Assembly: GCF_054482595.1 (NCBI RefSeq)
Contig: NZ_CM137008.1
Direction: 5' to 3' (one strand)
DNA length: 64,000 nt
In this document: positions 33,843-63,262 of the stretch, piece after piece
Position numbering within the stretch: position 1 is the first letter of the stretch
Layout: the number at the start of each line of letters is the position of its first letter
Notes under the pieces: generated by a model
What the model was told of the DNA's origin: nothing
Databases searched by the model: none
What the model saw: only the letters and a program-made list of their open reading frames with translations
Program-made: the position numbers and the translations under genes

Positions 33843-34600
<758 letters not shown>

Positions 34601-41391: not shown

Positions 41392-41510
41392 AGCGAGCTT
41401 TCTCCTGATTTTGGGCATAGCGAAGCCGCTCACCATGCCCTGTAATTTACAGAGGGTTATATTTTTGTATTGCTGTTTTAGTGCCCGATGAGGGGCTTAC
41501 GTGGCAGGAA

Positions 41511-42659
41511 TTACCACTCTGCTACGCTGTTATCTTCATGACGCCAGAGCGGATTACGCCAGTCCGGGGCATTTTTACTGAACTCAATAACTTTAGCTTC
41601 GTCGATTTCCACGCCTAAGCCCGGTTTCGTTAGCGGTTTAAAGAAGCCGCCGACCATGCTGAAGTCCTCTTTGTTTTTCACAAAGTCGAGTAACTCCGCG
41701 CCTTTGTTGTAATGAATGCCCATACTTTGTTCCTGAAGTACGGCGTTATAGGAAACAAAGTCGATATGCAGGCAAGCTGCCAGTGCAATCGGTCCGAGCG
41801 GACAGTGCGGCGCAAGGGTCACGTCATAGGCTTCTGCCATTCCGGCAATTTTGTAGCATTCGGTAATACCGCCTGCGTGGGAGAGATCCGGTTGCAGAAT
41901 CGAAATACCACCCGCCTCCAGCACACGTTTAAAATCGAAACGTGAGAACATGCGCTCACCCGCCGCCAGTGGAATATGCGTTTGTGCCGCCAGTTTCGGG
42001 TAGTATTCGGCCTGTTCTGCCAGCACCGGCTCTTCAATAAACAGCGGGCGATACGGTTCCAGTTCTTTAATCAGTACTTTCGCCATCGGCGCGCTGACGC
42101 GACCGTGGAAATCAAGACCAAACTCAATCTGATTGCCAAAAGCTTCACGAATTTGTGCCACGGTGTTGACCGCCGCATCTACCGCGCGGGAGTTATCAAT
42201 TAGCCCCAGTTCTTCACAACCATTCAGTTTGAAGGTATCAAAACCGATTTCGCGCAGGATTTTTATTCCGTCGATAACATTCGCCGGACGATCGCCGCCG
42301 ACCCAACTGTAGGCTTTAATTTTGTCACGCACCAGGCCGCCCATCAGTTGCCAGACCGGCGAATTCAGCACTTTGCCTTTGATATCCCATAACGCCTGGT
42401 CGATCCCGGCAATGGCGCTCATCAGGATTGGACCTCCACGATAAAATCCGGCGCGATACATCACTTGCCATAAGTCATTGATGCGCGATGGATCCTGACC
42501 AATCAAATAGTCACCCAGCTCGTGAACTGCCGCTTCCACCGTACGGGCGCGGCCTTCGATCACGGGCTCGCCCCAGCCGACCACGCCTTCATCGGTTTCA
42601 ATTTTCAGGAACATCCAGCGGGGAGGTAAACGATACGTGGTAATTTTGGTGATTTTCAT
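41511..42659 (-). CDS. dgoD: D-galactonate dehydratase
   Basis: 382 aa enolase-superfamily protein; operon context dgoRKAD. Confidence 0.9.
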
Positions 42660-43273
42660 TGCACTGCCTCTCGATACGCCTTAACAAATGCTGCTGCCTG
42701 CTGCGCGGTGCGTTCTACGGACTGCCCGGCGCGATAGAGATCGCTGCCTAAGCCTGCCCCTGCACAACCTGCGTCTATCCACTGCGCCAGGTTTTCTGGC
42801 GTCACGCCGCCAACGGCAAAGACTGCGATGTCCGGTGGTAATACCGCTTTTAACGCTTTGATGTATTGCGGACCAAAAGCCGATGACGGAAATATTTTCA
42901 GCGCCTGAGCGCCCGCGTCGAGCGCGGTAAAGGCTTCGGTCGCCGTCGCGCAGCCGGGGCAAACGGTCATGCCGTAGCCCACCGCACGGCGGATCACTTC
43001 ACTATGGATATTGGGCGTAACGATGAGCTGGCAGCCCATCCTGGCGAGCACATCGACCTGTTCAGGTTTCAGTACCGTACCTGCGCCAATCAACGCCTTG
43101 TCGCCGTACGCATCAACGATGGCGGGAATGCTCTGCTCCCATTGTGGGGAATTCAGCGGGATTTCAACTGCGTCGAACCCGGCGTCAATCACCGCGCCAA
43201 CATGCACCAGCGCCTCGTCGGGCGTAATGCCGCGCAAAATGGCGATCAGCGGGAGTTTAGTTTGCCACTGCAT
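42656..43273 (-). CDS. dgoA: 2-dehydro-3-deoxy-6-phosphogalactonate aldolase
   Basis: 205 aa KDPG-aldolase family; operon context. Confidence 0.88.
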
Positions 43274-44135
43274 GAGCGATGCTCCTTATACCAGCCTGAA
43301 ATGCCTTGTCGCCCGCCACCACCGCCACGTCGCAACCCATCGCCTGAAAGGCTTGCTGGTAGCGCGCGGTCAGCGATGTTCCGGCGACAAGGGTGATGGC
43401 GTGTTGATGGGTCACATAGTCGCGCATACTGGCAACCTCTGCGCCAATCAACAAACCAGAGAGAAATTCGCTGACCTGTTCGCGGGGAAGCGTTCCCAGC
43501 ACATGCGAGGCGCGAACTTCAAAAAGCTGCGGCAATATGGCGGGCGCATTAAGGCCACGCTCAAGGCCAGCCGCGAAGGCATCGGCAGAGTTTTCCTGCG
43601 GCGGCAAACCTGCGCCAATCAATGAGTGATTTAACAGTAAATGATGTAATTCACCGGTCATTACGGTGCGAAAATCGTTGATTTGCTGGCTATCGGCCTG
43701 CACCCATTTGCAATGGGTTCCGGGCATAACATAAAGAGAGGAAGGAGCCAGAGCACGCGCGCCGATCAATTGTGTTTCTTCGCCGCGCATCACATTGTGG
43801 TTATCGTCATGAGAAACGCATAATCCGGGAATAATCCAGATATTGTCGCCAACCGACGTTAATTGTTCGCCAATAGACGAAAAACGGACAGGAACAGATA
43901 AATACGGCGCAACTTTCCAGCCGACATTGCTGCCAACCATTCCTGCCATTACCACTGGCGTTTTCTCTTCACGCCAGTCGGTCGTGACTTCTGCTAACAC
44001 CGCAGCCGGAGATTTTCCGTTCAGGCGCGTGACGCCTGCTTCTGATTGCCTGCTCTCCAGGCAGTGGTCGCCCTGATAAAGCCAGGCGCGCAGATTGGTC
44101 GATCCCCAGTCAATTGCGATGTAGCGAGCTGTCAT
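43257..44135 (-). CDS. dgoK: 2-dehydro-3-deoxygalactonokinase
   Basis: 292 aa; operon context. Confidence 0.88.
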   Translation of the reverse strand: MTARYIAIDWGSTNLRAWLYQGDHCLESRQSEAGVTRLNGKSPAAVLAEVTTDWREEKTPVVMAGMVGSNVGWKVAPYLSVPVRFSSIGEQLTSVGDNIWIIPGLCVSHDDNHNVMRGEETQLIGARALAPSSLYVMPGTHCKWVQADSQQINDFRTVMTGELHHLLLNHSLIGAGLPPQENSADAFAAGLERGLNAPAILPQLFEVRASHVLGTLPREQVSEFLSGLLIGAEVASMRDYVTHQHAITLVAGTSLTARYQQAFQAMGCDVAVVAGDKAFQAGIRSIAHAVAN

Positions 44136-44821
44136 GTGATTTCCTTTAACCTTCGTGTCGAGCTGGCGATCATGGTAAGCGCCGCCTGCTCTGCCGCATC
44201 GCCGTCCTGATGCCGTATCGCATCGAACAGCGCCTTTTGTTCCTGGAGCGTTTGCGGCATGTTGGCCTCATCACCCATCCAGGTTCGTTCAAATACCGCC
44301 CGCTGCAGCGAACTGATCGCAATGCTAAGTTGCTGTAACACCGGATTATGTACCGACTGCAGCACCGCCTCGTGGTAGCGAATATCCGCTTCGTTAAACG
44401 CTTCGCGGTCCTGATTGTTGGCAATCATCTCGTTCAGCGCCGATTCAATCTGCGCCAGATCGCTGGAAGTCGCGCGCTCTGCTGCCCAACGGGCAATCGC
44501 CGGTTCCACCAGATTTCGCACTTCGCTCATGGCACTGATAAGTCGTGGGTCGTAGTCGTTTTCCAGCACCCATTGCAGTACGTCAGTGTCGAGGTAATTC
44601 CACTGGTTACGCGGTGCCACAAACGCGCCGCGATAACGTTTCATTTCAATCAGCCGCTTCGCCATCAGCGAACGGAACACCTCACGGATGATGTTGCGCG
44701 AGGTTGCGAACTCCTCACAGAGCTCCGCCTCAGCCGGAAGCGGCGAGCCTGGCACGTATTTGCCGTGAACGATCTGTTTACCCAGCGTAATGACGATGCG
44801 ATCGGTTTTATTGAGAGTCAT
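44132..44821 (-). CDS. dgoR: GntR-family regulator of galactonate operon
   Basis: 229 aa, N-terminal GntR HTH, FCD C-terminal domain. Confidence 0.88.
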   Translation of the reverse strand: MTLNKTDRIVITLGKQIVHGKYVPGSPLPAEAELCEEFATSRNIIREVFRSLMAKRLIEMKRYRGAFVAPRNQWNYLDTDVLQWVLENDYDPRLISAMSEVRNLVEPAIARWAAERATSSDLAQIESALNEMIANNQDREAFNEADIRYHEAVLQSVHNPVLQQLSIAISSLQRAVFERTWMGDEANMPQTLQEQKALFDAIRHQDGDAAEQAALTMIASSTRRLKEIT

Positions 44822-45173
44822 GGAGAGTCCTTGTGCTCTGTATGTTCTTCTCTACTTTACCCCGATCGATGCATAACGCGGCAACTTTGTAGTACCAGCG
44901 TGATAACGTTCGCGTTTGCTGTGTGCGTAATGTAGTACAAGCTTATATTGCTGTACTACAATTTAGATCGCAAAAAGAACAATGCATAAAAAAATGACAT
45001 GCGTCGGGCAGAAATGGAAAAGGGATATCAGGCGCTAAACAGGAGGGAAAGAAGAGTATGCTTTCAACGACTTAGTACTCAGACAGCAGCTTTTCCAGCG
45101 TCAGCGATGCGAATGAGGTAGTTCTGATTCATGACCGTTTTTATAATCCGGCTATGATATTTTTACCACATTG

Positions 45174-45506
45174 TCAGCGCGTTAAGGCGTGATGTTTTTG
45201 GCTGACGCTAGCCCAGCTTACTAAGGAGCATTGCCAGCTGCGGGCGGGTAAAGGATACCCCGCCGTCACGTACCGCAAGCCAGATAAATTGCCTTCCTCC
45301 TGGCGCTTGGTGAAAAGACACAGACCATCAGCCCAGAATATTTTAACAGTGTCACCCCGTCGGCCTCGGAAGATAAACAGGTGGCCGAAGAAGGGATTAT
45401 AATTCAGCACATGTTGACCCTGTTTTCCCAGTCCGTTGAAGGATTTACGCATATCAGCTACCCCGGCAATGAGGCAGATACGGGTACCGGATGGTAGTGA
45501 GATCAT
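45174..45506 (-). pseudogene. IS66-family TnpB (orf2) remnant
   Basis: MISLPSGTRICLIAGVADMRKSFNGL...HLFIFRGRRGDTVKIFWADGLCLFTKR matches IS66 orf2; C-terminus divergent/truncated. Confidence 0.65.
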
Positions 45507-45940
45507 CGTCTCCTCCTGGCTAACTCACGGATTAACACCTTGAGCAGCTCTGGTGAAGGATTTTCCAACACATCATGTTACTGAGACGGAACTCAACCTT
45601 ACAGGAACTGACACTGACTGTGTTATGGGGGGAAATGGATAAAGATGGAGCAATAGACATCATCGTATTTTTCTGTTCATTCGGCGTTATCTCAACAGGT
45701 AATAATTTAACGCCAGCGTCAGAAGTAGTCGTTACAGGAAGACGCCGCGAAACAACACAGGTTCAGGAGAATAAGGTAGAGCGTCTATAGTCCTGTTTCC
45801 TCCATCTAGGATGTCTGATGGAAATTCATCAGATACACTAAGGATCCCCATAAAGTATTTTATTGGCACACATCAGACATCCTTTAGGTATCCAGCAAGT
45901 TATTGAACTATTGCGTCGTCTCGTTCAAACTTCTCTTTTA

Positions 45941-47238
<1,298 letters not shown>

Positions 47239-47665
47239 GTATCCTCTGCGATGCCGAAGTCGGGGTTCTACCCTTGAGCTCTTCCTTAAGCATGCCTATT
47301 CTGGATAGCATTACACTGCTTTGAGGGTATCCAGCAACGATAAGAACTGACTAGGGGGTGGAGTTCACCTGCTTCACAATTAGTAAGTTTGCTGTTATTT
47401 AGCTTATTATATGGCTCATCACTGTGACGTTTTTTAGCTAGGAAATGCAATGAAAATTGTGCAGACTAGTCTCTCCGAATCTGTTACTCAGCATCTTGCC
47501 GAGCGCATCCTGTGCGGCGAACTGCCAGCAGGTAGCGTGCTGCCTGGCGAAAATGAACTGGCAACAGTTTCCAGGGGTGGTTGAACTCCGCCTTCGCAAA
47601 ATAAGAGCTTGGCGAAGGATATCGTTACTGTGGCGCAGTTCACGATTTTCACGCTCCAGCGTCTT

Positions 47666-47923
47666 TCAGACGCTGACGTTCAGCGGTGGTGAGTCCACCA
47701 TCACCGCCCCCGGTATCCCACTCATGCTGGTTGTACACCAGACACGCAGAGTCTCCGGTGTACAGCCAATCTTTGGGACGATGGAACAAATTGCTGCCCA
47801 TTGGGAGTCATATTCGCCCTGATTTTCCAGAACCATACGAACTGTCCGTTGACGGACTTCGGGGGAAAAACGAGTATTTTTAGCCATCCTGTTTACCTCT
47901 TTCTCAGGGAATTTAGTCTCCAA
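47666..47923 (-). pseudogene. IS629/IS1203-like OrfA remnant
   Basis: [50 protein letters not shown] matches IS629 OrfA N-terminus, then diverges. Confidence 0.6.
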
Positions 47924-48480
47924 GATTTCCGGGGCGCTTCACTTAGTTATTAATTAAATACCCCCCCGTTTCTTAAGTGGATTTGTTTATTCACATCTCG
48001 TGAATATTAGAACATTATATGATTGTACATCCATATAGAGTTCCGAGGCAGAACGAGAGTGAATCATTGATTGATGCCAACCATAAGGTAATTATCTGGA
48101 AGAGGCCATAGTCTTCCGGAAGATATGAAAATAATATTTTCTTTTGTTCTGCGTCGTGTTATTTTTTCTTTGTCCGTTGGCAAGACGGATAGATAAATAT
48201 TAAAACAAACAGACAAGATTCAGCATAGTTTACCTTCCGTCCCCTGCATCCTGGGGATTTTTTTTACTCAGTGATGGTAATCATACAGCCACAGATAACG
48301 GGAGCGATGTGTATTTTTCGGATCCACAACAGGACTGTTTTGAACAGAGGTATATTTTCCAGCAGTGACTGTCACTGTGGTAGCAAAATAAATATCCTCC
48401 GGCATAGCCGGAGGTTTTTCAAATGGGTGATGCTGCCAACTTACTGATTTAGTGTATGATGGTGTTTTTGAGGTGCTCCA

Positions 48481-48756
48481 GTGGCTTCTGTTTCTATCAG
48501 CTGTCCCTCCTGTTCAGCTACTGACGGGGTGGTGCGTAACGGCAAAAGCACTGCCGGACATCAGCGCTATCTCTGCTCTCACTGCCGTAAAACATGGCAA
48601 CTGCAGTTCACTTACACCGCTTCTCAACCCGGTACGCACCAGAAAATCATTGATATGGCCATGAATGGCGTTGGATGCCGGGCAACCGCCCGCATTATGG
48701 GCGTTGGCCTCAACACGATTTTCCGCCATTTAAAAAACTCAGGCCGCAGTCGGTAA
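48481..48756 (+). CDS. insA: IS1 InsA
   Basis: 91 aa, recognised InsA sequence. Confidence 0.9.
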
Positions 48757-49178
48757 CCTCGCGCATACAGCCGGGCAGTGACGTCATCGTCTGCGCGGAA
48801 ATGGACGAACAGTGGGGATACGTCGGGGCTAAATCGCGCCAGCGCTGGCTGTTTTACGCGTATGACAGGCTCCGGAAGACGGTTGTTGCGCACGTATTCG
48901 GTGAACGCACTATGGCGACGCTGGGGCGTCTTATGAGCCTGCTGTCACCCTTTGACGTGGTGATATGGATGACGGATGGCTGGCCGCTGTATGAATCCCG
49001 CCTGAAGGGAAAGCTGCACGTAATCAGCAAGCGATATACGCAGCGAATTGAGCGGCATAACCTGAATCTGAGGCAGCACCTGGCACGGCTGGGACGGAAG
49101 TCGCTGTCGTTCTCAAAATCGGTGGAGCTGCATGACAAAGTCATCGGGCATTATCTGAACATAAAACACTATCAATAA
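48675..49178 (+). CDS. insB: IS1 InsB (normally expressed as InsAB' by frameshift)
   Basis: 167 aa, recognised InsB sequence. Confidence 0.85.
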
Positions 49179-49549
49179 GTTGGAGTCATTACCCGCTGCA
49201 GGTATAAAATGAAGGTTTTCTGATTTTTCAGGGGCTATTGCAGGCCCCTTTTTACATCATAAATAATGATATCACTTAATGTATTACAAAATGTTATAAC
49301 CAGGGATATTCCCAGAATTTATAATTTCCTCCTGTACTTTTCACCATGACACAGAAACGCTATACATCGCGGTATTTCTGCAGGGTACGGGCTGGATATG
49401 GGTAAGCGTCTCGGTAGAGAGACGGTTAATGAGTCTAAGAATTACTCTTCTTTTAGCTGTGAAATAAGGAGGCGTTAAGAATATTTATTAAATAAAGGCC
49501 CGCTTTTAAAATGGGCCTTAAGGGCAAGACGATGTATAAAATATTTTAT

Positions 49550-50581
49550 CTATTGTTCATAAATTGATACGATAGCTTTACCATCGTTGCCGATAGTTCC
49601 ACGATACATCCCTTCTGTATTGAAACTCATAGTATAATTACCATTCTTATCTAGAACAATGACACCACCACTACCATTAATGTTTTTAACTTCATCAAGC
49701 GCATTTTGAGCTGCTTCTTTCAATGGTGTATTTTTATATTTCACCTGAGCAGCAATATTGTATGCAGTTGAAGTTCTAATAAACATTTCTCCAGTACCTG
49801 TAGCAGAAACAGCAACGGTATTATTATCGGCATAGGTTCCTGCTCCAATTATTGGCGAGTCACCTACGCGTCCGTAACGTTTATTTGTCATACCTCCTGT
49901 TGATGTTCCAGCTGCCAGATTACCATCTTTGTCCAACGCGACTGCTCCAACAGTTCCATATTTATAGTCGTAGTTCTTTGGGGGGAGTAAAAGAGATGCT
50001 GATTTACCATTATGATCAAGGGTTATTTTTTCGTCTTTTAAAGCGTTCTGTAGCTGTTGCCAACGGAAATCAGTTTTGAAATATGCTGGCTCAACCATAA
50101 CTAAGCCTTGCTCTTTTGCAAATAGTTCCGCACCATTAGAGATCATTAATACATGAGGGCTTTTAGTCATAACTGCATAAGCAGCGTTTATAGGGTTTTT
50201 TATGGTCGTCACTCCTGCAACGGCTCCGGCCATTTTGGTTTTTCCATCCATAATTGCAGCATCAAGTTCGTTTTTGCCATCATGAGTAAAGACAGCGCCT
50301 TTTCCAGCATTGAAGAGGGGAGAGTCCTCCATAACATTAATTGCACGCTGAACAGCATCAAGGCTACTTCCTCCACTATTAAGCACAGCATACCCAGCAT
50401 TTAGTGCATCTGTTAACTTTTCTCTGTATTGTTTTTCTTGTTCAGGTGTAATAGTATCTTTTGTTATGGTGCCAGCTCCACCATGAATTACAAGGCGTAT
50501 TGGCGTTTGAGATTCAGCGTGAGCATATCCTATACACAATGCGAAGGCTGCCATTACTGTTATACCTTTTATTTTATTCAT
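49550..50581 (-). CDS. Periplasmic isoaspartyl peptidase / L-asparaginase (Ntn-hydrolase family)
   Basis: Signal peptide MNKIKGITVMAAFALCIGYAHA; Ntn-hydrolase motifs (GTVGAVALD); track ORF has 10 extra N-terminal codons. Confidence 0.8.
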   Translation of the reverse strand: MNKIKGITVMAAFALCIGYAHAESQTPIRLVIHGGAGTITKDTITPEQEKQYREKLTDALNAGYAVLNSGGSSLDAVQRAINVMEDSPLFNAGKGAVFTHDGKNELDAAIMDGKTKMAGAVAGVTTIKNPINAAYAVMTKSPHVLMISNGAELFAKEQGLVMVEPAYFKTDFRWQQLQNALKDEKITLDHNGKSASLLLPPKNYDYKYGTVGAVALDKDGNLAAGTSTGGMTNKRYGRVGDSPIIGAGTYADNNTVAVSATGTGEMFIRTSTAYNIAAQVKYKNTPLKEAAQNALDEVKNINGSGGVIVLDKNGNYTMSFNTEGMYRGTIGNDGKAIVSIYEQ

Positions 50582-50699
50582 AACTCCTCCTTTTGTCTGA
50601 AGTTTATACAATATAAATATTTAAACTTTTTCCATTATGTTTATTTGACTTCTATCAAAAAAAATTATGCTAATTCGATTTTGCAAAATTTAATTGCAC

Positions 50700-52005
50700 G
50701 CAAATAATATGCACATATTTTTTAGTGTAATGAGTGACTTTTATGGATAGGTTCCCGCTGACCTCTATCACCATACTTCCCCCCGCTTTCAGTAGGACAT
50801 CCGTGTCTGACTTTATATCGAGATTTCATGTGGAAGAGATAAATGCCGGACCTTGAGAAAGAAATATAACTCCCCAGTCTCGTTGAACCCTCTTGTTGAT
50901 CCACTTTTCAAGTACGTAACGATCCAAGTTCCGCCTGCCGTCCAAGGCGTTTGGTGAAGCAGCACGGTCCGTCACTGTCAGCCCACAACTTCCGCTCCCA
51001 CGGGCGCGCCACCGCGCTCTTCTTCTCATTCACCTTCTGTTTCAGTTTGCTCTCCACGAACGCCCTGATGTCCTTCAGCAGATGGTCGCCCGCTTTCCGG
51101 CTGCTTACGTAGATGTTGCAGTCGTCTGCGTAGCGGCAGAAGCTGTGTCCACGATGGCGCTTAACTGCTGCGCTATCGCCTGCTGGATAAGCCTGTCCAC
51201 CACCGTCGGGATGCCTAAGGTTCTCACGCCGCCATCCGGCTTCGGGATATCCATCCGGCGTATTGCCCGCGGCTGGTAGTTTCCGTCAATCAATACCTGC
51301 CATACGCTGCGCCAGTTCTTCTTCAGCCACGGTTTCAACTCCGCCACACCTTTGTTTTCCACCACGCGCTGATAAGCCAGCATCAGGTTTTCTCTCGTTA
51401 TCACCGCTTCCATCGTCAGCGGCACTTCCGCTTTCGTTTGCCCACCCGCCGCCGTGCTGATTTCAGCGCCATCATGCAGCCCTGACGGATACTGTCCGTC
51501 TCCTCTGCCGCTGGCCGCAGTTGCCTGCGCGTGTGCTTCATTAATCATCATCGGGTTCGGATGTCCTAATCACAGTTAATCATGTTCGGCCCTTCATGCT
51601 GCCGGTTTTGCAGCACTACTACGGCGTCGGCTGACTTCTGCCGCCCCATCCCGGCGCCTCACGGCACCGGTAGCACACTGGCAGGGCGACAGATCTCCCG
51701 GGGTAATTCACGCGACTTTCCTGCTTATGCCTGTCGGCTTTACGTCACAGCGTTCCGTGTGAGTATCGGGCTTTGGTGATTTGTGCCACCTTACCCTGCT
51801 GCGCCGCCTTAACCGCTTCCTGTTCGTCAGGCCAGCATTTTGCATCCGGCTTCCTTCAGATTTCACCTCGCGATGAACACCCTTGCCTTCCGCTAACACT
51901 TCCCCTCACCGGGTGTGTGGAGGACTTTCACCTCTTAGTCGTTCTTCAGCCACCACAGTTGAAGAACAGCGCCAGTCACGGCGCTACGCGCCATGCCCGG
52001 CGCAC
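50700..52005 (-). mobile_element. Group II intron fragment (5' domains plus truncated intron-encoded protein)
   Basis: Minus-strand GTGCGCC 5' consensus at about 52005; RT-like ORF 51105..51551; 3' part missing. Confidence 0.5.
51105..51551 (-). pseudogene. Group II intron reverse transcriptase/maturase, N-terminal fragment
   Basis: ...TRENLMLAYQRVVENKGVA...RRMDIPKPDGGVRTLGIPTVVDRLIQQA typical RT domains 0-2; truncated. Confidence 0.65.
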
Positions 52006-52196
52006 ATATGCAACGAGCGCCGATGTAAACGGCACCCGTAATATTTTAGCTGCAGGGCACGCCGTACTTGCCTGTAAAGAGATGGTGCAGTCAGGCCTTT
52101 TGTTTAAGCAGGAGCCCACCGAAATGATTCCGGCAATAGCCTGATTAGCAGGAATCCACATCCTTCTGGGCGTGGAGGATGACAATCTAAAACAAG

Positions 52197-53558
52197 TTAA
52201 TAAAAAATACCGATAATCGCAGAGTGAAAAACAAAACCAACTATCAGGGGTAAAGCAGTGCGTTTTACCACTTCGAAGGGAGTTATATTTGCTCCACTGG
52301 AAACCGCTATAACCACGCCAGATACGGGAGACATCGCACGCCCCATATGGGAAGCCTGCTGCATAGGCAGGATCATCGATATGGCATTCACGCCCATGCT
52401 GGCAGCGATTTGTGGTATCAGTTCAACAAAAGCCAGAAATGGCGCATTGCCCGATCCCATAATGACAGCTGCAGCCAGTGTAACCAGAGCAAAAACGATG
52501 CCCATCGCAAAAGGGGGTAACCCAACGTGCTCTGCCATCAAAATTAATTGATCTATCGCGCCAATGCTTTTAATCCCATGAGCAAACACACCTGCGGCCA
52601 CCAGTAAGCCCACCACGCCGGTAAATGCTGTCCCCATTCCTTTCAGGAAATGGGTAAACCCGTCACATACAGCTTTCAGATCACATTTACGGACCCATTC
52701 GATCAGCATGCAAATTGCCATTGAGATAAGAACAATCGTAATGATATTGAGATTAATTCCGGTGACAAAAATCTCCGATGAGCCAACGGCCATCAGGATC
52801 GGTAGCATAGGTAGCAGAGCATAATAAGCCGGCGTACTGCCTGCTTTTATGACCGTTGTCGTACCAATTTCATGAGGTAATGTTCCAGCTTTACGATCAC
52901 AGTGTTTCTGCCAGAAAAAGTGGCTGATACCGACAATCAGAACAGTCGCCAGAGCAGCAGGCCCCTGATGATAGACAACATACTCCACCACATCCATATT
53001 TACCGCTTCAGAGCCTCGTATGGCGTCAATGGCTGTCGGTGTGTACGCCACACCAAGAGAGGTGGCAATTACCCCTGCGGCAGACGCTGCTGACAGCCCG
53101 AGTCCGAGCATAATAGGAAACATGGTTCCCATCAGTAAAACAGCAAGTCCGGTAGCTGAGGGGATAGCCAGTTGAAGAAGACTGGCGAAAAGATAAGAGA
53201 AAAAAAGCAGAACATAGGGGGAACGTAATGTCCGTAATGGCCGGGTTACCACACGGACAACCGCTTCATTCGCACCGATATGGTCCATGTAATGCGCAAA
53301 TCCCATCAGGGTCATAATCATCAGACCGAGATCAGCCGCACGGGTACTGAATAAATTGCGCATGACTTCGAAAGGATCAAGAAAACTAATTCCTGTACCG
53401 GACACGCCCTTCGGTAACACTGTGCCCCAACCGGTAAACCAGGTACAAACCATCAGCGCAAGCCCGGCAATAAAAAGCACGGGTTCTGCACGATATCCTT
53501 TCAGGATTAAGCGAGCAACTATCACGATAACAAGAAGCGCGATAACAACTTTAATCAT
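52197..53558 (-). CDS. DcuC-family anaerobic C4-dicarboxylate transporter
   Basis: 453 aa polytopic membrane protein; DcuC-like C-terminal motif [25 protein letters not shown]. Confidence 0.8.
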
Positions 53559-54811
53559 GACTCACGATTCCCTGTGGTGAACCCATTGAATGTCTCCTGA
53601 ATGATGGCAATAACCACATCACTTGCCGCCCGAAGTGAACGGACTGGAAGATATTCATAGATAGAATGGAAATTATGTGCGCCGGTAAAAATGTTCGGGC
53701 AGGGTAATCCTTTTTGTGAAAGAACAGCGCCATCATATCCTCCACGCATCGCCACCGGTGTCGGAGTAATACCACATCGTTGGTAAGCTCGCAGTGCAAT
53801 GTCGATGGGATAATGCCCCTCTCCCTGCAGACTGTTAAAGACATTGGCGTACCGATCGCTCAGTTGGCAGATCACGCTTCCTTCTCCCCATAATGCACAA
53901 GCACTTTCTGCAAGCTGGCGTACAAATGTCTTCCGGGCGTGATATCCTTCCTCGCTGAAATCTCGTATATCCAGTTTTAGTACAGTTCTGGCACTGTTTC
54001 CCTGTAACTGTTTCACCCAATAATAGCCTTCGCGTCCTTCTGTATATTCAGGCGCTTCTCCTCCTGGCAACATCGAAATGAATTTGTGAGCCATCAAAAG
54101 AGAGTTCTTAAGCTTGCCTTTCGCTGACATAGGGTGTGCAGACTGGCCGGTAAAGATAATTTCTGCATCACCCGCATTCCAGTTTTCGTAAACAAATTCT
54201 CCAATACCGCAGCAATCCAGAGTGTAGCCAAAATCTGCGCCAAACTCTGAAACATCGAAGGCTTTGGCCCCCCGTAACCCCTGCTCTTCATCTGGCACAA
54301 ACCCAACTTTAACTTCTCCATGCCTGATTTCAGGATGAGAAATCAGAAATTGAAGTGCGTTCATTATGGCCGCCAGCGCCGCTTTATCATCGGCCCCCAG
54401 AAGGCTGGTACCATCTGTCACTATAAGATCATCGCCAATATAATTTTTGAGCTCCGGGAATTCACTCTCACGCAAATAAATATTCAGTTCAGGGTTCAGA
54501 CAGAGATCGCCCCCATTATAAGGTAATCGTTGCGCTTTTGTATCGGCTGTCTGTTCGGCACTGGTGTCCAGATGTCCAAAAAAGGAAACGACGGGGATTG
54601 TTTCGTCAGTATTTGCAGGGAGTGTTGCTGTTACGATAGCATTCTCTCTGAGAATAATATCCTCCATACCCAATGCTTCAAGTTCACTCACCAACAATTT
54701 CGCAAGTTTCATCTGACCAGGAGATGAAGGCATGATCCCTTTTGCGCCGTTTTCTCGTGAGGTAGTGGTATTAATTTTTGTATAATTGATAAAGCGTTCG
54801 ACAATATCCAT
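53555..54811 (-). CDS. Peptidase T-like tripeptidase (M20 family)
   Basis: 418 aa; M20 motifs (HLDT, GADDKAA, DEE); 4-nt overlap with dcuC start. Confidence 0.8.
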   Translation of the reverse strand: MDIVERFINYTKINTTTSRENGAKGIMPSSPGQMKLAKLLVSELEALGMEDIILRENAIVTATLPANTDETIPVVSFFGHLDTSAEQTADTKAQRLPYNGGDLCLNPELNIYLRESEFPELKNYIGDDLIVTDGTSLLGADDKAALAAIMNALQFLISHPEIRHGEVKVGFVPDEEQGLRGAKAFDVSEFGADFGYTLDCCGIGEFVYENWNAGDAEIIFTGQSAHPMSAKGKLKNSLLMAHKFISMLPGGEAPEYTEGREGYYWVKQLQGNSARTVLKLDIRDFSEEGYHARKTFVRQLAESACALWGEGSVICQLSDRYANVFNSLQGEGHYPIDIALRAYQRCGITPTPVAMRGGYDGAVLSQKGLPCPNIFTGAHNFHSIYEYLPVRSLRAASDVVIAIIQETFNGFTTGNRES

Positions 54812-55676
54812 TGAGATGCCTTCTTCAACATTTTCCAGATTTTAGGGACAGTTTATTAACACCTTCTGACTCTGAAGAACGTGAATTTATGCTATGTTCA
54901 GGCTGTCATTTTTCCAAGAGAGAAATGATAATTATGAAGAGCCTTTGCATGATTGAACATAAAATACAGACTCCATTACAGTATGGCGTTTTTTTAGCTT
55001 GTGATGATTAATGCCGTTACACCCTGAAAGACGATTTAGTGATCAAATCATCTAAAAATAATTAATCATAATGGATGTTAAAATCCATGATCTAACTCAA
55101 ATTACAAACCATTAAAGCGGAAGATGGAGTGGAAACATTACGTTTTCTACTCTATTCCAAGATTTATCAATTAGAAGTGCAATAACATTCCCGTGTAAAA
55201 ACTCTTATCTTAATAAGAATCACCATGAGTGACTATATCTACAACGCTGGAAAACCTAGCAGAGATATAGGTTTTCTATGGTGGTAAACAGGTTGTTTTT
55301 CTGAAGGATGTGACCAAACCGGGATGCTATTATAAAATAGTTCTACTTAATCATGATTTAAAAAATCAGCATTAATAATAAGTTTGATTGCGGAATTGTT
55401 TTTTTTGATCTTAATCATATTAGTGCAGCGTTATCTGCATATTTCGGGCTTTTACTGGTTATATTTGATTGCTAAATAACCCACTAATTTTAACGTTATA
55501 AAAATGTGCTTGATATCACGTTTTAAGTTTATCTTATTAGTTTAAATATATTCCATTAGATGGTAATGGTTATGTCATCTGGTGATTATAAGTATTCATT
55601 CTTAATGTTGGATAAGTGTTTTATGAAAACAATTTGTTATTGTCACATTGTTTTCGAAAAATGGAGTTAGAAAATT

Positions 55677-57077
55677 ATGTCTCGTATTGAAAGCGATTTC
55701 CTTGGTGAGCGTGAAGTTCCGGATGATTGCTATTATGGTGTTCAGACACTTCGTGGTGAGGATAATTTCCATATTACTGAAATGCCAATGAGTCAGGAGC
55801 CCTTCTTCATCATTGCCTTCGGTTATGTGAAAAAAGCAGCTGCGATGGCTAATAAGGAGTTAGGTACAATTCCTGCTGATGTTGCGGATGCTTTAATCTG
55901 GGCTTGCGACCAATTAATTGATGGTAAGTACCGGGAACAGTTTGTGACCGACTGGCTTCAGGGGGGAGCCGGAACGTCAACCAATATGAACTGCAATGAA
56001 GTGATTTGTAATCTTGCTGCAGAAAAACTTGGTAGCGTTAAAGGGGATTACAAACGCGTTTCGCCAAACGACCATGCTAATTTTGGTCAGTCCACCAATG
56101 ATACATATCCGACAGCATTACATCTGGCATTGCTGCTGCGAAGCAATGTATTGCTTGAAGCTGTTGAACACCTCGTAGGAGCATTCTACAAAAAGGCTGA
56201 CGAGTTCAGCACAGTGCTCAAGATGGGACGTACTCACCTGCAGGATGCAGTGCCAATGACTCTCGGCCAGGAGTTCCATGGCTGGGGTTTTACAATTAAT
56301 GATGAAATTCGGGTCATCCGTAATGCACAGGAACACCTGCGGGTTGTAAACCTTGGTGCTACTGCGATTGGTACCTGTGTTACCGCTCACCCGGATTATC
56401 CCGCTTTAGCCGTGAAATATCTGGCCCAGATCACAGGCATTAATTTCAGGAACAGTGAAGATCTCATCGCTGCCACAAGCGACTGTGGTGCATATGTTGC
56501 ACTCAGTTCGGCCATGAAGAGCCTCTCTGTGAAGCTTACCAAGGTTTGTAATGACATTCGACTGCTTGCTTCAGGCCCCCGTTGCGGCCTGGCTGAAATT
56601 AACCTGCCTCAATTGCAACCGGGTTCTTCCATTATGCCTGGTAAGGTTAACCCCGTTATCCCGGAAGTAACAAACCAGTCTTGCTTTCTGGTTCAGGGGC
56701 TGGACACCACAGTGATGCTGGCGGCATCTGCTGGTCAGCTTGAGCTTAACGTTATGGAGCCGGTCATCACCTTTGCGCTGTTCACCTCACTCAAGGTGAT
56801 GACGAATGCCTGTAACACACTCCGAACTAAATGCATTGATGGCATTACAGCTAATTCCGATCGAACTGCAGAGATGGTAATGCATTCCTGCGGTATTGTG
56901 ACTCTCCTGAAGCCACATCTGGGATATAAGGTGTGTTCTGAAATGGCGCACGAAGCATACCATACAGGCAAATCCCTCCATCAGATAGTGGTTGTCGAAC
57001 GTAAGCTACTCACACAGGAAGAATGGGAGAAGACATTCAATCTGGATAATCTGATTGCTCCGAAGTTCGAACAATAA
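55677..57077 (+). CDS. Aspartate ammonia-lyase family protein (copy 2)
   Basis: 466 aa, differs from copy 1 at 3 residues; GSSIMPGKVNP signature. Confidence 0.85.
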   Translation: MSRIESDFLGEREVPDDCYYGVQTLRGEDNFHITEMPMSQEPFFIIAFGYVKKAAAMANKELGTIPADVADALIWACDQLIDGKYREQFVTDWLQGGAGTSTNMNCNEVICNLAAEKLGSVKGDYKRVSPNDHANFGQSTNDTYPTALHLALLLRSNVLLEAVEHLVGAFYKKADEFSTVLKMGRTHLQDAVPMTLGQEFHGWGFTINDEIRVIRNAQEHLRVVNLGATAIGTCVTAHPDYPALAVKYLAQITGINFRNSEDLIAATSDCGAYVALSSAMKSLSVKLTKVCNDIRLLASGPRCGLAEINLPQLQPGSSIMPGKVNPVIPEVTNQSCFLVQGLDTTVMLAASAGQLELNVMEPVITFALFTSLKVMTNACNTLRTKCIDGITANSDRTAEMVMHSCGIVTLLKPHLGYKVCSEMAHEAYHTGKSLHQIVVVERKLLTQEEWEKTFNLDNLIAPKFEQ

Positions 57078-57232
57078 TTGTTCAGAATCTGTAAGAAGGG
57101 AGATCCGGCAGGGGATGGCGCGAATGAAAACGTATCAGTCCTCTGCCCGGATGTTTGTAAAAATACATTCCATAAGGCCTTTGTTGAGAGGAGCTCAGGG
57201 GTAAAGGTGTCTCACTAATTCGGGAGAGAATC

Positions 57233-58567
57233 ATGGATATTATCACTGTTCTTCAGATAGTGGTTCTGCTGGGGGCAATCTTTTTGGGTGTCCGTATGGG
57301 CGGGATTGGTATTGGTTATGCCGGTGGCATTGGGGTATTGATTCTGGGGCTTTGTCTGGATATGAAGCCTGGTAATATCCCCTGGGATGTGATTCTAATT
57401 ATTGCATCGGTAATTTCTGCTATTTCGGCCATGCAACTGGCGGGAGGACTGGACTATCTCGTTCAGGTCGCTGAACGAATTCTTCGTAAAAATCCAAAAT
57501 ATATTAATTACCTGGCTCCGGTTGTCACTTATGTGCTGACAATCTTTGCCGGTACGGGACATACTGCATTTTCAATGATCCCTGTAATTGTCGAAGTTTC
57601 CAAAGAACAAAACATTAAGCCCTCATGTCCGCTCTCAATTGCGGTTGTATCATCTCAAATTGCAATTACAGCATCACCTGTATCGGCTGCCGTTATCTAT
57701 ATGTCTGGCGTACTGGAAGGCTTTGGGTGGAGTTATCCAGTATTGCTTGGGATATGGTTGTTTACCACATTCGTTGGTTGCATGCTTACCGCATTTATAA
57801 TCAGTCTGATTTCTGACATGAAATTAGACAATGATCCGGTTTACCGGGAGCGTCTTTCCAAAGGACTCGTAAGCGCGCCAGTAAAGAGTGTTAACAAACA
57901 GCTCAAGCCTTATGCCAGACGATCTGTCGCAATTTTCCTTATTGGCGTCATCCTGGTGGTCCTTTACGCTTCGGCCATTAGCCCGACGCTGGGTCTGATT
58001 GATAACGTTGTTGTTAGTCGTGATGCGGCTATTATGAGTCTCATGCTACTGGTTGGCGGATTCATTACCCTTTTCTGTAAAGCAGATATAAACAAGATTG
58101 CGGACTCCTCTGTGTTCAAGTCAGGCATGGTTGCCTGTATCTGTGTACTGGGTGTGGCATGGTTGGGGGACACTTTTGTATCTGGTCATTCAGGAGAAAT
58201 TAAGGAGCTTGCCAGAACTACTGTATCCCAGTATCCAGCTCTTCTGGCTGTGGTATTTTTCCTGGCTGCGATGCTTCTGTATTCACAGGCTGCAACTGCC
58301 AAAGCTATCACTCCGGCTATTGTGACTGCATTGGGTATTACTGCAGCGAATCCGGATGACAGTTACATGCTGGTAGCTTCTTTTGCTGCTGTGTCTGCTT
58401 TATTTGTGTTACCAACTTACCCAACCCTTCTGGGGGCGGTGCAAATGGATGACACAGGAACGACCCGTATTGGTAAGTATGTGTTCAACCATGCTTTCTT
58501 TATTCCGGGTGTACTGGCTATTGCTTTCTCAGTGCTTCTGGGATTTCTTGTGGTGAGTATGTTCTGA
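57233..58567 (+). CDS. Anaerobic C4-dicarboxylate transporter, DcuA/DcuB family (divergent from 36398..37696)
   Basis: 444 aa polytopic membrane protein, DcuA-like. Confidence 0.8.
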   Translation: MDIITVLQIVVLLGAIFLGVRMGGIGIGYAGGIGVLILGLCLDMKPGNIPWDVILIIASVISAISAMQLAGGLDYLVQVAERILRKNPKYINYLAPVVTYVLTIFAGTGHTAFSMIPVIVEVSKEQNIKPSCPLSIAVVSSQIAITASPVSAAVIYMSGVLEGFGWSYPVLLGIWLFTTFVGCMLTAFIISLISDMKLDNDPVYRERLSKGLVSAPVKSVNKQLKPYARRSVAIFLIGVILVVLYASAISPTLGLIDNVVVSRDAAIMSLMLLVGGFITLFCKADINKIADSSVFKSGMVACICVLGVAWLGDTFVSGHSGEIKELARTTVSQYPALLAVVFFLAAMLLYSQAATAKAITPAIVTALGITAANPDDSYMLVASFAAVSALFVLPTYPTLLGAVQMDDTGTTRIGKYVFNHAFFIPGVLAIAFSVLLGFLVVSMF

Positions 58568-59054
58568 TTCTTGACCGAACGTAATTTCAATCTCCTGGCT
58601 ACCCGTCAATACGTATCCACATTGATTGGTAGCCCATTCAATCTTTAAGTATTGAGGTGCGCATTGTTACTTCGTTATAAATATTTTAGTGCAACATTTA
58701 TTATACGATTCTAATCAAAAAACATGATGGACGCTCATTGCTATTCTGAATGGGAGGTAATTAAACATTCTATTTACATTGATGTTTTCTACATCGATAA
58801 GAATATTTTTGATGAATGATGTTATCACGGAATGCGGTGTTTTTTTATCGATAGTTAATGTTGTTCGCCCACCTGTCAAGGAGGGATATTATATCCTGAA
58901 ATATAACAGTTTATCATCTTATTCTGGATGAGTTAATGACAAGTTAAAGAGAATGAATTTATTAAAACATATCATTATTAAGCAAATTTATAAGGCATTA
59001 ACTGTTCTATAGAAAAATACATGGTAAATATATTTCACAGTCCAGGAGGTAGAT

Positions 59055-60101
59055 ATGAATTTCTATAAAAGAACGGCACTTGCCGCACTGGTTATGGGTT
59101 TTAGTGGTGCAGCACTGGCATTACCCAATATCACCATTTTAGCAACCGGCGGGACCATTGCCGGTGGTGGTGACTCCGCAACCAAATCTAACTACACAGC
59201 GGGTAAAGTTGGCGTAGAAAATCTGGTTAATGCGGTGCCGCAACTGAAGGACATTGCGAACGTTAAAGGCGAGCAGGTAGTGAATATCGGCTCCCAGGAC
59301 ATGAACGATAATGTCTGGCTGACACTGGCGAAAAAAATTAACACCGACTGCGATAAAACCGACGGCTTCGTCATTACCCACGGTACCGACACGATGGAAG
59401 AAACCGCTTACTTCCTTGACCTGACGGTGAAATGTGACAAACCGGTGGTGATGGTCGGTGCAATGCGCCCGTCCACGTCCATGAGCGCAGACGGTCCCTT
59501 CAATCTGTATAACGCGGTAGTTACCGCAGCTGATAAAGCCTCCGCTAATCGTGGCGTACTGGTAGTAATGAACGACACTGTTCTGGATGGCCGTGACGTC
59601 ACTAAAACCAACACCACCAACGTAGCGACCTTCAAGTCTGTTAACTACGGCCCTCTGGGTTACATTCACAACGGTAAGATTGACTACCAGCGCACCCCGG
59701 CACGTAAGCACACCAGTGATACGCCGTTCGATGTCTCTAAGCTGAATGAACTGCCGAAAGTCGGCATTGTTTATAACTACGCTAACGCATCCGATCTTCC
59801 GGCTAAAGCACTGGTAGATGCGGGCTATGATGGCATCGTTAGCGCTGGTGTGGGTAACGGTAACCTGTATAAATCCGTGTTTGACACCCTGGCGACCGCC
59901 GCGAAAAACGGCACTGCGGTAGTGCGTTCTTCCCGCGTACCGACGGGAGCAACCACTCAGGATGCCGAAGTGGATGATGCGAAATATGGCTTCGTCGCCT
60001 CTGGCACGTTGAACCCGCAAAAAGCACGTGTTCTGCTGCAACTGGCTCTGACGCAAACCAAAGATCCGCAGCAGATCCAGCAGATATTCAATCAGTACTA
60101 A
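59055..60101 (+). CDS. ansB: Periplasmic L-asparaginase II
   Basis: 348 aa; signal peptide; TGGTIAG motif; recognised AnsB sequence. Confidence 0.95.
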   Translation: MNFYKRTALAALVMGFSGAALALPNITILATGGTIAGGGDSATKSNYTAGKVGVENLVNAVPQLKDIANVKGEQVVNIGSQDMNDNVWLTLAKKINTDCDKTDGFVITHGTDTMEETAYFLDLTVKCDKPVVMVGAMRPSTSMSADGPFNLYNAVVTAADKASANRGVLVVMNDTVLDGRDVTKTNTTNVATFKSVNYGPLGYIHNGKIDYQRTPARKHTSDTPFDVSKLNELPKVGIVYNYANASDLPAKALVDAGYDGIVSAGVGNGNLYKSVFDTLATAAKNGTAVVRSSRVPTGATTQDAEVDDAKYGFVASGTLNPQKARVLLQLALTQTKDPQQIQQIFNQY

Positions 60102-60108
60102 TAACCTC

Positions 60109-60129
60109 GCCCCGGTAACGTGCCGGGGC
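60109..60129 (+). terminator. Rho-independent terminator of ansB
   Basis: Hairpin gccccgg(taacgtg)ccggggc followed by TTTTAT. Confidence 0.6.
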
Positions 60130-60694
60130 TTTTATAGTATTGGTTTTAGGCAGTTTAATGAATAAAGTGACAGACATGAATAATGGGGACCATTTCAATA
60201 CATAATGGTTTTCTTGTACCCATGAAATGTGGTTAATTCCGGATTTATCGGGAGGGGCTTGTTAATGATATCCTGATGCTCATCGTGATGATGAGTAACA
60301 TTCATAAAATGTGCTTATCAAAAACCGTGGAGTATTACTTGGCAGATAGATGAGCGAATTCACAGTTGAATCCAGAGAAATAATATCCTCTGTTCACTGG
60401 TAGACCAATGTTGTTCCAGGACAAATTCATTCACGATAAAATTGCGGAAAAAACGGGCAGGATTGGTAACGAAGCATCCGGGAGAATATACTCTTTCTGA
60501 ACAATGGGGGAGTGCCATGCATCAGTGTAAATGTCAAAAAATCTGAAATCTTCCATATTTACCGCACATAACTATTCCCTGACCATACGTTTATCCTCTT
60601 AATATCCGGAACACACTCTCCAGAAATTATCGCACGATGAGTTTATTGTGATTAAGTAGATGTCATAATTATGGTAGATAAATGATTAAAAGGC

Positions 60695-61420
60695 TTACGG
60701 TTTTTCACTATATTTTTTAATATATGGGTAATATTGATGTCTTATCCAGTAACGATAAGCAGGGCGACCAGTGACACCACAGGAAAAATCAAATGCCAAT
60801 ATATGGCAACTTACCAGCCAGATGATATATTTTCTGCATGAGATTCTGGATATCTTAATACCACTGGCCAGTTCATTGAGTGTGAATTTTTTATGTTGAT
60901 GCTCATCAATCCACCTACAAATAATTCGCAATGTATCTGTTGACAGTCCTTTGGGTAAATGTCTTATTTTTTCTGTGTTCGGAATTATTTTGTGAGTTAA
61001 TAAATCCAGTTCTGATTGATTGAATATCTTCTGACTCTCAAGAAGAGTCTTTTTATGTTTCCATCGTGTAAGCGAATCAACCAAACGTGAGATATGAAAT
61101 GGCTTTATCAGATAATCAGAAACACCATAATGTAATGAATCTTTAATTGTCGCAGAGTCATCAGCAGCAGAAATTACAATAACATCACTTTTGCAATGAA
61201 TGCTATGAAGAAAAGGGAGTAAATCAAGTCCGTTATCTTTATTGATATAAAGATCAAGCAAAATCAAGTCAGCCAGTTTTTTATTTACAGATATAATTTC
61301 TTTCGCCTGACCAAGTGATAACGCTATGCCACAGCATTTAAATGCCGGGGTTTGTTCTACAATGCGACGAATCACATCAGCTACTAATATATCGTCATCA
61401 ACAATTAATACATTGTTCAT
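60695..61420 (-). CDS. Response regulator, CitB/DcuR-like (REC + HTH), orphan
   Basis: 241 aa; N-terminal MNNVLIVDDD receiver domain; no histidine kinase ORF adjacent. Confidence 0.75.
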   Translation of the reverse strand: MNNVLIVDDDILVADVIRRIVEQTPAFKCCGIALSLGQAKEIISVNKKLADLILLDLYINKDNGLDLLPFLHSIHCKSDVIVISAADDSATIKDSLHYGVSDYLIKPFHISRLVDSLTRWKHKKTLLESQKIFNQSELDLLTHKIIPNTEKIRHLPKGLSTDTLRIICRWIDEHQHKKFTLNELASGIKISRISCRKYIIWLVSCHILAFDFSCGVTGRPAYRYWIRHQYYPYIKKYSEKP

Positions 61421-62398
61421 TTTTCCAACCTAGCTTGCCAACGTAATACCTAAATCTATATAAATATTCTATATAGTGATTTAAAAATCAACCCTATTGT
61501 TACTTATGGAATTTAATTAACTTTCCCTGGGTTAGATATACTATTTAATATTTCCCCGTTAAAATAAAATGTGAAATTATTTTTGTTAAAAATTTTAAGA
61601 GGGAAATGGATTAGTTTTTTTTATCATTGGTTCTGTGTCATTAACTTTGGAGTTAGTAACTCTACTTCTAAGAACGTTTTTTGAAAAAACATTGCTTATA
61701 CTAAACATTATAGTAAAAAGAGTGACACCTGATCAACCTACAACAGTGATTACACCAGAGTGTATATCTCTGTATATTTTCTGTGACGAGTACAAAATAT
61801 CAAGTTAACCCACTCAGATCGTACAGCAGAACCTTGTAATTTCCACGCAACTCACTGATTGGAGATACATCTAATTTTTATTTCCATGGCTGAGATTACT
61901 AAGAACGTGTTCTGTTGTATTGTTATCCGTTTTTGTCAAACCATTATCACAGTTCATTCGGATATCTCTGATACTGATCTCCTCAGACCTGCATAATTAC
62001 AACTTCTGTTGGTTCCGCGTCACCAGGTAATCAACACCCAACTGTTGGTTCTGTCCTTGGACGGGAACACATGTTGGCAGGTAACTCCCATCCAGTGAAG
62101 ATAAATTTCTCAAAAGGCAACTACTCAGGCAAGTTCTCCTTTATGTTTATGCCTGATAATATTTTCCAGATCGTATAAGGCGTCGATACGTACAGAAGAC
62201 GTGGCACTCAGACTTACGCATCCCTGCTCTAACTTAACATAGTCTGCTATGATAGCGCTCTCTTTACCAATAAAGCTCGCTTATATATCAAAGATACCTT
62301 ATTAGGATAAACACAGCTAATAACTTGACAGTGATATCACATAGCACTCACACCAGATAAGTTTTCCGGTTGAGTTTTAGTTTTTGAAAGATTTAATG

Positions 62399-63055
62399 CT
62401 ATATTTTCTTTTCCAGTAAATGAACTCGCATTAACTCTGAAGCCATTTGGGCATCGCCTTTTTTGATATACGACAATATCTCTCTCTGTTTTGAAGCAGT
62501 ATCAAGGAAGTATTGACAATCATTATCCGGTAACGACTCTCTTGTTTTCTCAAAATAAGCGATTAACACATCAGAGAAAACCTGCAGAACACGATTACCA
62601 CTGGCCTGAAGCAAGAGCAGGTGAAAATCCCGATCATGTTGATCTGCTATTTGTGGATTGTCTGCATTTTCCTCAATCAATCTCAATTCATTTTCAAGTT
62701 TGGAGAGCATCGCTGGGAAAATTCGGCGTGTTGCCAGTGGAATGATCGCGCACTCAACTAAAATTCTGGCCTCTGTAAATTCCGAGATATCAAACCCAGA
62801 TAGATCAAACTGCATCAACAATTGGTCGTTAATACTACTCTGGCCAACGTTTTTTAACAGACTTCCTCTGCGAGGGGCTCGTTCAAGCATTCCCATTTGG
62901 ACGAGAGTACTAAGTGCCTGACGGACTTTATATCGGGAGGTGTTAAAACGAGTTGCAAGTTCCGTTTCTGTTTCTATACGGCCATCGGCTTTACGATTAG
63001 CTTCATCAAGCAAATAATCTTTAATAGATTCAAATAGTTCTTTTCTTTTATCCAT
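62399..63055 (-). CDS. GntR-family (FadR/FCD subfamily) transcriptional regulator
   Basis: 218 aa; N-terminal GntR HTH ([19 protein letters not shown]). Confidence 0.8.
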
Positions 63056-63262
63056 AATATACTCTGATTACAGCTCCTATCTATTCATAACTATAAATAA
63101 TATATTAAATTATATTTCTTTATATACTATCATAACAAATTTATTTATCATGTTTATTCGCACATTATGTGTAGACTGGCCCCCTGAATCTCCAGACAAC
63201 CAATATCACTTATTTAAGTGATAGTCTTAATACTAGTTTTTAGACTAGTCATTGGAGAGCAG

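Follow-up and report, generated by a model that had tools for sequence, protein, structure and literature searches.

The 64,000-nt stretch of contig NZ_CM137008.1 (NCBI RefSeq assembly GCF_054482595.1) analyzed here, called the window throughout, represents an accessory island of Escherichia coli that is found in about 4.5% of complete genomes of the species. It carries two nearly identical genes of the aspartate ammonia-lyase (AspA, or aspartase) family, which form the arms of an inverted repeat. We conclude that these genes are very probably acquired aspartase duplicates that recombine with each other in two ways, by gene conversion and by reciprocal inversion of the intervening DNA. In ∼220 public E. 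coli genomes, annotation of both copies already exists; only the dynamics of the duplication and its origin are new.

Extent and identity of the repeat arms

A repeat search across the whole window revealed one long inverted pair, with arms of 1451 nt each that are 99% complementary and lie 19401 nt apart. Direct alignment and a script-based count gave 14 mismatches and no indels. When 250-nt flanks were included, similarity set in abruptly 50 nt 5' of the ATG and ended precisely at the TAA stop codon, with unrelated flanks on either side of both arms, so that the similarity cannot be due to chance. Each arm consists of a 50-nt leader, including a GGAG ribosome-binding site, and a complete open reading frame (ORF) of 466 codons. 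The features concerned are as follows.

55627-57077, plus strand: repeat arm B, the feature under study (50-nt leader and complete aspartase-family ORF)
34775-36225, minus strand: repeat arm A, its partner (14 mismatches to arm B)
55677-57077, plus strand: coding sequence of lyase copy B, 466 aa (RefSeq WP_000086506.1, "aspartate ammonia-lyase")
34775-36175, minus strand: coding sequence of lyase copy A, 466 aa (RefSeq WP_000086501.1 in related genomes)
36226-55626, no strand: segment between the arms, 19.4 kb here and 26-37 kb in other strains

The original prediction, made from the sequence alone, had described the feature as the second copy of a duplicated lyase gene, and the inverted 1451-nt pair with its intact ORFs bears this out. 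Its arm limits were near the measured ones, with a start at 55637 instead of 55627, and with the partner at 34735-36215 instead of 34775-36225 on the minus strand. Three of the 14 mismatches are located in the shared leader. Three residues distinguish the two proteins (I14V, K28E, and G120S), and 7 further coding mismatches are synonymous.

Judged by its sequence, the lyase belongs to the AspA family as a divergent member. It contains the domains Lyase_1 (PF00206; 292 bits, residues 10-341) and FumaraseC_C (PF10415; 52.5 bits, residues 407-460) and passed the NCBIfam model for the aspartate ammonia-lyase subfamily, NF008909, with 680.3 bits (cutoff, 510). The fumarase model fumC (TIGR00979) gave 460 bits, well under its cutoff of 665. 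The nearest solved structures are aspartases: 6WNG, 1JSW from E. coli, and 1J3U from Bacillus. The SS loop, G316-S-S-I-M-P-G-K-V-N325 (signature GSSxMPxKxN), is present and aligns with those of 1J3U and 1JSW. Also conserved, and invariant among relatives, are the substrate and catalytic positions T100-S101, S139-T140-N141, and T186-H187. In AspB numbering, we take the substrate residues to be T101, S140, T141, N142, T187, H188, S318, K324, and N326, with the roles presumed from the AspB and AspA structures. The lyase shares only 54% amino acid identity with the core AspA of E. coli K-12. Carriers therefore have a third aspA-family gene that is foreign and present in two copies. From family and gene context, the predicted reaction is the conversion of L-aspartate to fumarate and NH4+.

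Two public "E. coli" proteins, P0037 and P0043, consist of residues 1-364 of the island lyase fused to the core AspA C terminus at the conserved motif LELNVMEPVI. Although they could reflect recombination with core aspA, they were set aside as evidence of it, being probably assembly chimeras (one from a metagenome-assembled genome, one from a partial record).

Sequence exchange and inversion

Differences between the arms are strongly bunched: 13 of the 14 lie within the first 510 nt, with a single one left for the final 944 nt (permutation p ∼2e-5). We compared the alleles of both arms at 13 diagnostic sites in 8 two-copy sequences (7 genomes and the window). A-type and B-type alleles formed mosaics whose switch points varied among genomes. 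The racemase-side copy corresponds to arm A of the window and the pepT-side copy to arm B.

TUM1880 and EC7518, racemase-side copy: to B-type after site 176
ST70, racemase-side copy: to B-type after site 149
TUM12357, racemase-side copy: to B-type after site 134
ECCNB20-2 and TUM12357, pepT-side copy: to A-type after site 90
S1-IVC-02-A, pepT-side copy: to A-type after site 383
FDAARGOS_1250, both copies: A-type throughout, also at the three leader sites

Both loci of FDAARGOS_1250 specify one and the same protein. The clustered differences and the variable mosaics bear the mark of recurrent gene conversion rather than of mutations arising independently. A simple duplication of very recent date, with random point mutations gathered separately by each copy and no ongoing exchange, would also yield two intact ORFs with 99% identity. 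The bunching of mismatches, the varied switch points, the full homogenization of FDAARGOS_1250 down to its leader sites, and the inversions described below all argue against it, and we consider this history extremely improbable. The single-copy allele of 1218KP (14588-16038 of its locus) matches arm B throughout the first 520 nt but differs from it at 18 sites over the remaining 931 nt. Possibly, this allele retains the 3' part of copy B from before conversion; the whole 1218KP island is ∼1.5 to 1.8% diverged, so these 3' differences may merely reflect the lineage of the island.

The segment between the arms holds the 5' flanks, and presumably the promoters, of both lyase copies. To find inverted arrangements, two synthetic post-crossover junctions were built and searched against all complete E. 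coli genomes. The junction joining the upstream region of A via the lyase to the downstream region of B was intact in 18 genomes. Three more covered it at 89%; these belong to the TUM12357 type described below and are not inversions. The reciprocal junction (upstream region of B, lyase, downstream region of A) was intact in 17 genomes, all of them within the 18. The flipped orientation is therefore found in 17-18 complete genomes, or ∼8% of carriers (about 1 in 12). In the annotations of EC7518, ST70, and S1-IVC-02-A, the whole block was reversed between unchanged flanks, with the gene order pepT, dcuC ... dgoRKAD ... LysR, racemase, dcu. EC7518 (inverted) differs from TUM1880 (not inverted) by 2, 0, and 1 single-nucleotide polymorphisms (SNPs) in 8.2, 4.0, and 5.2 kb, respectively, and both share a short (19.4-kb) interval marked by IS1. 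ST70, also inverted, has a long interval, and its nearest relatives are the noninverted FDAARGOS_1250 and TUM12357. At least two independent inversion events have thus occurred. The protein differences are all N-terminal and the 5' flanks lie inside the segment, and therefore the protein alleles travel with the segment.

Repeats that exceed short reads can be misjoined, and the chimeric proteins P0037 and P0043 demonstrate that misassembly near the lyase gene does happen. The inversions, or even the second copy, might accordingly be artifacts of assembling a 1.45-kb repeat. Against this speak the unrelated flanks and diagnostic SNPs of the arms, and the presence of both arms in ∼210 to 220 "complete genome" assemblies from many laboratories. 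Moreover, the inverted genomes possess both reciprocal junctions without gain or loss (clean in 17 genomes of many sources), include related sets (EC1515 and EC974), and span two chromosomal sites. We therefore regard an assembly artifact as improbable.

Origin and distribution of the lyase genes

Outside E. coli, the nearest lyase proteins were those of Duodenibacillus and other Sutterellaceae (86 to 89% amino acid identity), followed by named Sutterella species (77 to 79%). On Duodenibacillus contigs, a 466-aa lyase is followed by a spacer of ∼157 nt and a 444-aa Dcu transporter, and arm B has the same order of lyase, 155-nt spacer, and 444-aa transporter. The occurrence of this gene order in Sutterellaceae implies that the junction at arm B is the ancestral one. 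The Duodenibacillus and island lyase-dcu pairs share ∼75% nucleotide identity and differ in G+C content (60% versus 47%); at this identity, the Duodenibacillus genomes were ruled out as direct donor. The lyase-dcuA pair is likely a cross-class acquisition by E. coli of an aspartate catabolic pair of Sutterellaceae type.

A different history applies to the two genes preceding arm A, which are closest to genes of Citrobacter (79% amino acid identity for the racemase and 90% for the Dcu transporter), Providencia, and a further lineage of E. coli. In these bacteria, the unit of LysR gene and racemase-Dcu genes occurs without a following lyase, and the lyase behind racemase-dcu (arm A) is therefore the secondary copy. 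In TUM12357 (38442-40359 of its locus) and two other genomes, the repeat runs 461 nt beyond the stop codon into a truncated second dcuA that is cut by an IS3-family element. This longer repeat suggests from its sequence that the original duplication reached beyond the present arms. The IS2-like end close behind lyase A in the window likewise fits a secondary origin of this copy. The simplest history would be that an extra copy of the lyase gene and the 5' part of dcuA arose by inverted duplication and was later trimmed by insertion sequences (ISs).

Among 5426 complete E. coli genomes, 221 covered the copy-B locus (54800-60200) to at least 80% and 198 the copy-A locus; the arm sequence occurred at 465 places in 247 genomes. 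Roughly 210 to 220 genomes have two copies; a few are single-copy deletion derivatives, and ∼12 retain only a 164-nt remnant. RefSeq names both copies aspartate ammonia-lyase (WP_000086501.1 and WP_000086506.1, with the variants WP_000086499.1 and WP_072661840.1). The island usually resides between the sbcB-dacD-yee region and cobUST/tRNA-Asn. In S1-IVC-02-A, which has the flipped orientation, it is located at tRNA-Phe near yqgA-speC, together with a tyrosine integrase; this site differs from the usual one, and the island has therefore held at least two chromosomal sites. The carriers listed are mostly poultry and human extraintestinal isolates. No literature on the island, the duplication, or the lyase protein accessions was found.

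Gene context and proposed consequences

The genes and elements next to the two arms are listed below.

34669-34740, minus strand: left end of an IS2-like element (IS3 family, decayed) that starts 35 nt 3' of the lyase A stop codon and marks the secondary 3' flank of arm A
36398-37696, minus strand: gene for a 432-aa Dcu transporter, adjoining lyase A on its 5' side and cotranscribed in direction
37755-38474, minus strand: Asp/Glu-racemase family gene, upstream of lyase A on the same strand
38814-39713, plus strand: LysR-type regulator (annotated hypT), transcribed divergently from the racemase operon, a conserved partner of the racemase-Dcu module
52197-53558, minus strand: dcuC-like gene, transcribed away from lyase B
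53555-54811, minus strand: pepT-like gene, transcribed away from lyase B
54812-55676, no strand: intergenic region between the pepT-like gene and lyase B (865 nt, 30.9% G+C)
55405-55418: FNR-like palindrome TTGATCTTAATCAT, one mismatch to the consensus, 259 nt upstream of the lyase B start (a lead only)
57100-57155, plus strand: stable hairpin followed by UUUGUAAAAAU, in the 155-nt spacer between lyase and dcuA, downstream of arm B only
57233-58567, plus strand: DcuA-like C4-dicarboxylate transporter, 444 aa, directly 3' of lyase B
59055-60101, plus strand: island copy of ansB (periplasmic asparaginase II)

The AT-rich intergenic region upstream of copy B, put at ∼850 bp in the original prediction, is thus confirmed with little change in length. 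The dcuA-like gene, which had been called divergent, and ansB do follow the lyase, in the same direction of transcription; it is in sequence that the dcuA-like gene has diverged. The DcuA-like transporter shares 82% amino acid identity with the neighbor of the Duodenibacillus lyase and 55% with DcuA of K-12. FNR-like sites numbered 5 in the window as a whole against 3.75 expected, which is not above chance.

The island would serve in the use of asparagine, aspartate, and C4-dicarboxylates. AnsB would convert asparagine to aspartate, the PepT-like and isoaspartyl peptidases would release aspartate, and the DcuA-like, DcuC-like, and other Dcu carriers would exchange aspartate, fumarate, and succinate. 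We propose that a second lyase copy, at first reaching into dcuA, was set in inverted orientation at the 3' end of the LysR-controlled racemase-Dcu operon. The copy behind the racemase would thereby complete a self-contained, putative operon leading from D-aspartate via L-aspartate to fumarate. Being nearly identical and inverted, the arms are substrates for homologous recombination, which is presumably RecA dependent. Gene conversion, that is, nonreciprocal exchange, keeps the arms alike, above all in their 3' 940 nt, and a reciprocal crossover within them flips the 19 to 30 kb between. With both 5' flanks inside the flipped segment, inversion swaps the downstream partners. In the orientation of the window, the pepT-side promoter region would read lyase-dcuA(-ansB), and the racemase-dcu-lyase operon ends at the IS remnant. 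In the flipped orientation, racemase, dcu, lyase, dcuA, and ansB are collinear.

Several points weigh against this explanation or parts of it. The strict aspA equivalog model TIGR00839 gave the lyase 645.1 bits, a near miss below its cutoff of 681.2, which is consistent with a sequence-divergent clade of the AspA family. As regards activity, no enzymology of the lyase protein was found in the literature. Why the repeat should end precisely at the stop codon is only partly accounted for, and the 34 nt that separate this codon from the IS end in arm A match nothing in the flank of arm B. The orientations were taken from assemblies, and inversions at 1.45-kb repeats can be misoriented in hybrid or short-read-scaffolded ones. 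Promoter and terminator scans around both arms returned hits at or below the level of shuffled sequence and were set aside. Finally, read-through may be damped by the hairpin between lyase and dcuA, which the terminator scan did not call and which could be a partial terminator or serve to stabilize mRNA. Rewiring of the operons is therefore a putative consequence.

The two copies lie in different operons, and the racemase upstream of arm A passed the NCBIfam model for cysteate racemase CuyB (NF052483) with 250.4 bits against a cutoff of 190. This would be compatible with functional divergence, in which one copy acts as an aspartase and the other on a racemase-linked substrate, e.g., a cysteate- or D-amino-acid-derived compound. 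The newer label "cysteate racemase" of the Prokaryotic Genome Annotation Pipeline (PGAP) rests, however, on a low model cutoff, and the Bilophila-type context does not support it. In the cuy locus of Bilophila, CuyB is associated with the D-cysteate sulfo-lyase CuyA (PMC11193023). No CuyA gene was found beside the island racemase, whose neighbors are the Dcu transporter and the aspartase. Moreover, the three residue differences between the copies are conservative, none is at a catalytic or substrate position, and the alleles move freely between the loci, up to the identical proteins of FDAARGOS_1250. A division of substrates between the copies is therefore highly improbable.

Duplicate aspartases exchanging sequence by general recombination remain our preferred explanation also for the inversions. 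The flip might instead be a selected, programmed switch resembling phase variation. Both 5' flanks, which presumably bear the promoters, are located inside the segment, so that the flip decides which operon contains dcuA-ansB, and inversion occurred independently at least twice. No recombinase or invertase gene is annotated beside either arm, though, exchange points vary along the arms as general recombination predicts, and only ∼8% of carriers are flipped. We thus consider programming unlikely. Similarly doubtful is the idea that the duplicates are kept as a recombinational toggle by which clonal populations hold both regulatory configurations in the gut. If it were true, the flip would fuse racemase-Dcu-AspA to DcuA-AnsB as one LysR-controlled unit, and in the other orientation, the control region on the pepT side, which may depend on FNR, would govern AspA-DcuA-AnsB. 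The use of aspartate, D-aspartate, and asparagine would then come in two regulatory configurations.

Gene conversion and inversion have been described for the inverted duplicates tufA and tufB (PMC5485169, PMC6735719). The lyase arms resemble them as a near-identical inverted gene pair subject to conversion and crossover inversion. In Salmonella and E. coli, RecA-type conversion homogenizes the tuf genes, and reciprocal crossover inverts the intervening chromosome. Unlike the lyase arms, tufA and tufB belong to the essential core genome and are separated by hundreds of kilobases, and inversion between them is rarely tolerated; the arms are accessory and foreign, lie 19 to 30 kb apart, and persist in both orientations in natural isolates. 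Inverted-repeat recombination between IS elements, rrn operons, or prophages of E. coli likewise gives reciprocal, strain-polymorphic inversions. Here, in contrast, the repeats are a functional metabolic gene, and crossover regenerates two intact genes while swapping their operon partners. As in fimS, hin, and shufflons, DNA flanked by inverted repeats occurs in either orientation, with a possible effect on expression, but the arms measure 1.45 kb rather than tens of base pairs, exchange points vary, and no recombinase is nearby. The lyase arms are therefore not a site-specific invertible switch.

With the core aspA-dcuA operon, the island pair has in common the order of aspartase and DcuA-type transporter and the enzyme family. 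The core genes provide L-aspartate uptake and deamination to fumarate, and the same is presumed for the island pair. Unlike the core operon, the island pair has its nearest relatives in Sutterellaceae, with the lyase at 54% and the transporter at 55% amino acid identity to K-12. Core aspA of K-12 is single copy, with the small RNA (sRNA) AspX at its 3' end, and the aspA-dcu pair of Duodenibacillus and Sutterella is single copy near frdAB, whereas the island lyase is duplicated.

Our findings represent an ordinary case of recombination between inverted duplicates and a new example of a known process; they do not overturn current understanding. They show in natural isolates how a metabolic gene duplicate acts as recombination substrate inside a genomic island, and how a Sutterellaceae-type pair was joined to Citrobacter-type and Escherichia-type modules in an island putatively leading from asparagine and aspartate to fumarate. 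For annotation and pangenome studies, it follows that the allele names WP_000086501, WP_000086499, WP_000086506, and WP_072661840 are not locus specific and that synteny around the lyase loci is polymorphic.

The island (36226-64000 and related loci) is a mosaic of metabolic modules of differing sources: the Sutterellaceae-like aspA-dcuA pair, the Citrobacter-like LysR/racemase-dcu module, a second dgoRKAD, and the pepT-like and dcuC-like genes. An isoaspartyl peptidase gene is another component, as are two further Dcu carriers accompanied by an ArgH-like lyase. Numerous IS fragments occur as well, together with decayed clbP/pks remnants and what is left of a group II intron (51589-51877). An Rfam search of 30 to 64 kb of the window returned only IS- and intron-associated RNAs (isrC, STnc490, and group II intron domains), none of them in the arms. 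The matches to isrC and STnc490, both Hfq-binding sRNA families, at 46049-46171 and 40284-40407, coincide with IS3- and IS200-family elements.

Two pairs of diverged repeats (34669-34740 versus 63172-63243 and 33768-34151 versus 45972-46363; 71 to 74% identity) represent ends or interiors of IS3-family (IS2/ISEc31-like) elements. An IS2 left end is also present at 63172. The sequence just 3' of arm A resembles 63172-63243 over 72 nt; a leftover dcu gene start was considered here but rejected, as the similarity is that of the left end of an IS2-like element. A DcuR-like response regulator gene (60695-61420, minus strand) encodes a protein with 57% amino acid identity to core DcuR. It appears to be an orphan, and no gene for a DcuS-like sensor kinase was found anywhere in the 64-kb window. 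The ∼1 kb upstream of it (61421-62400) is AT-rich and noncoding. Island ansB shares 94.7% nucleotide and 98.3% amino acid identity with core ansB of K-12. Carriers thus have two asparaginase II genes that are ∼5% apart, another potential substrate for recombination between island and core.

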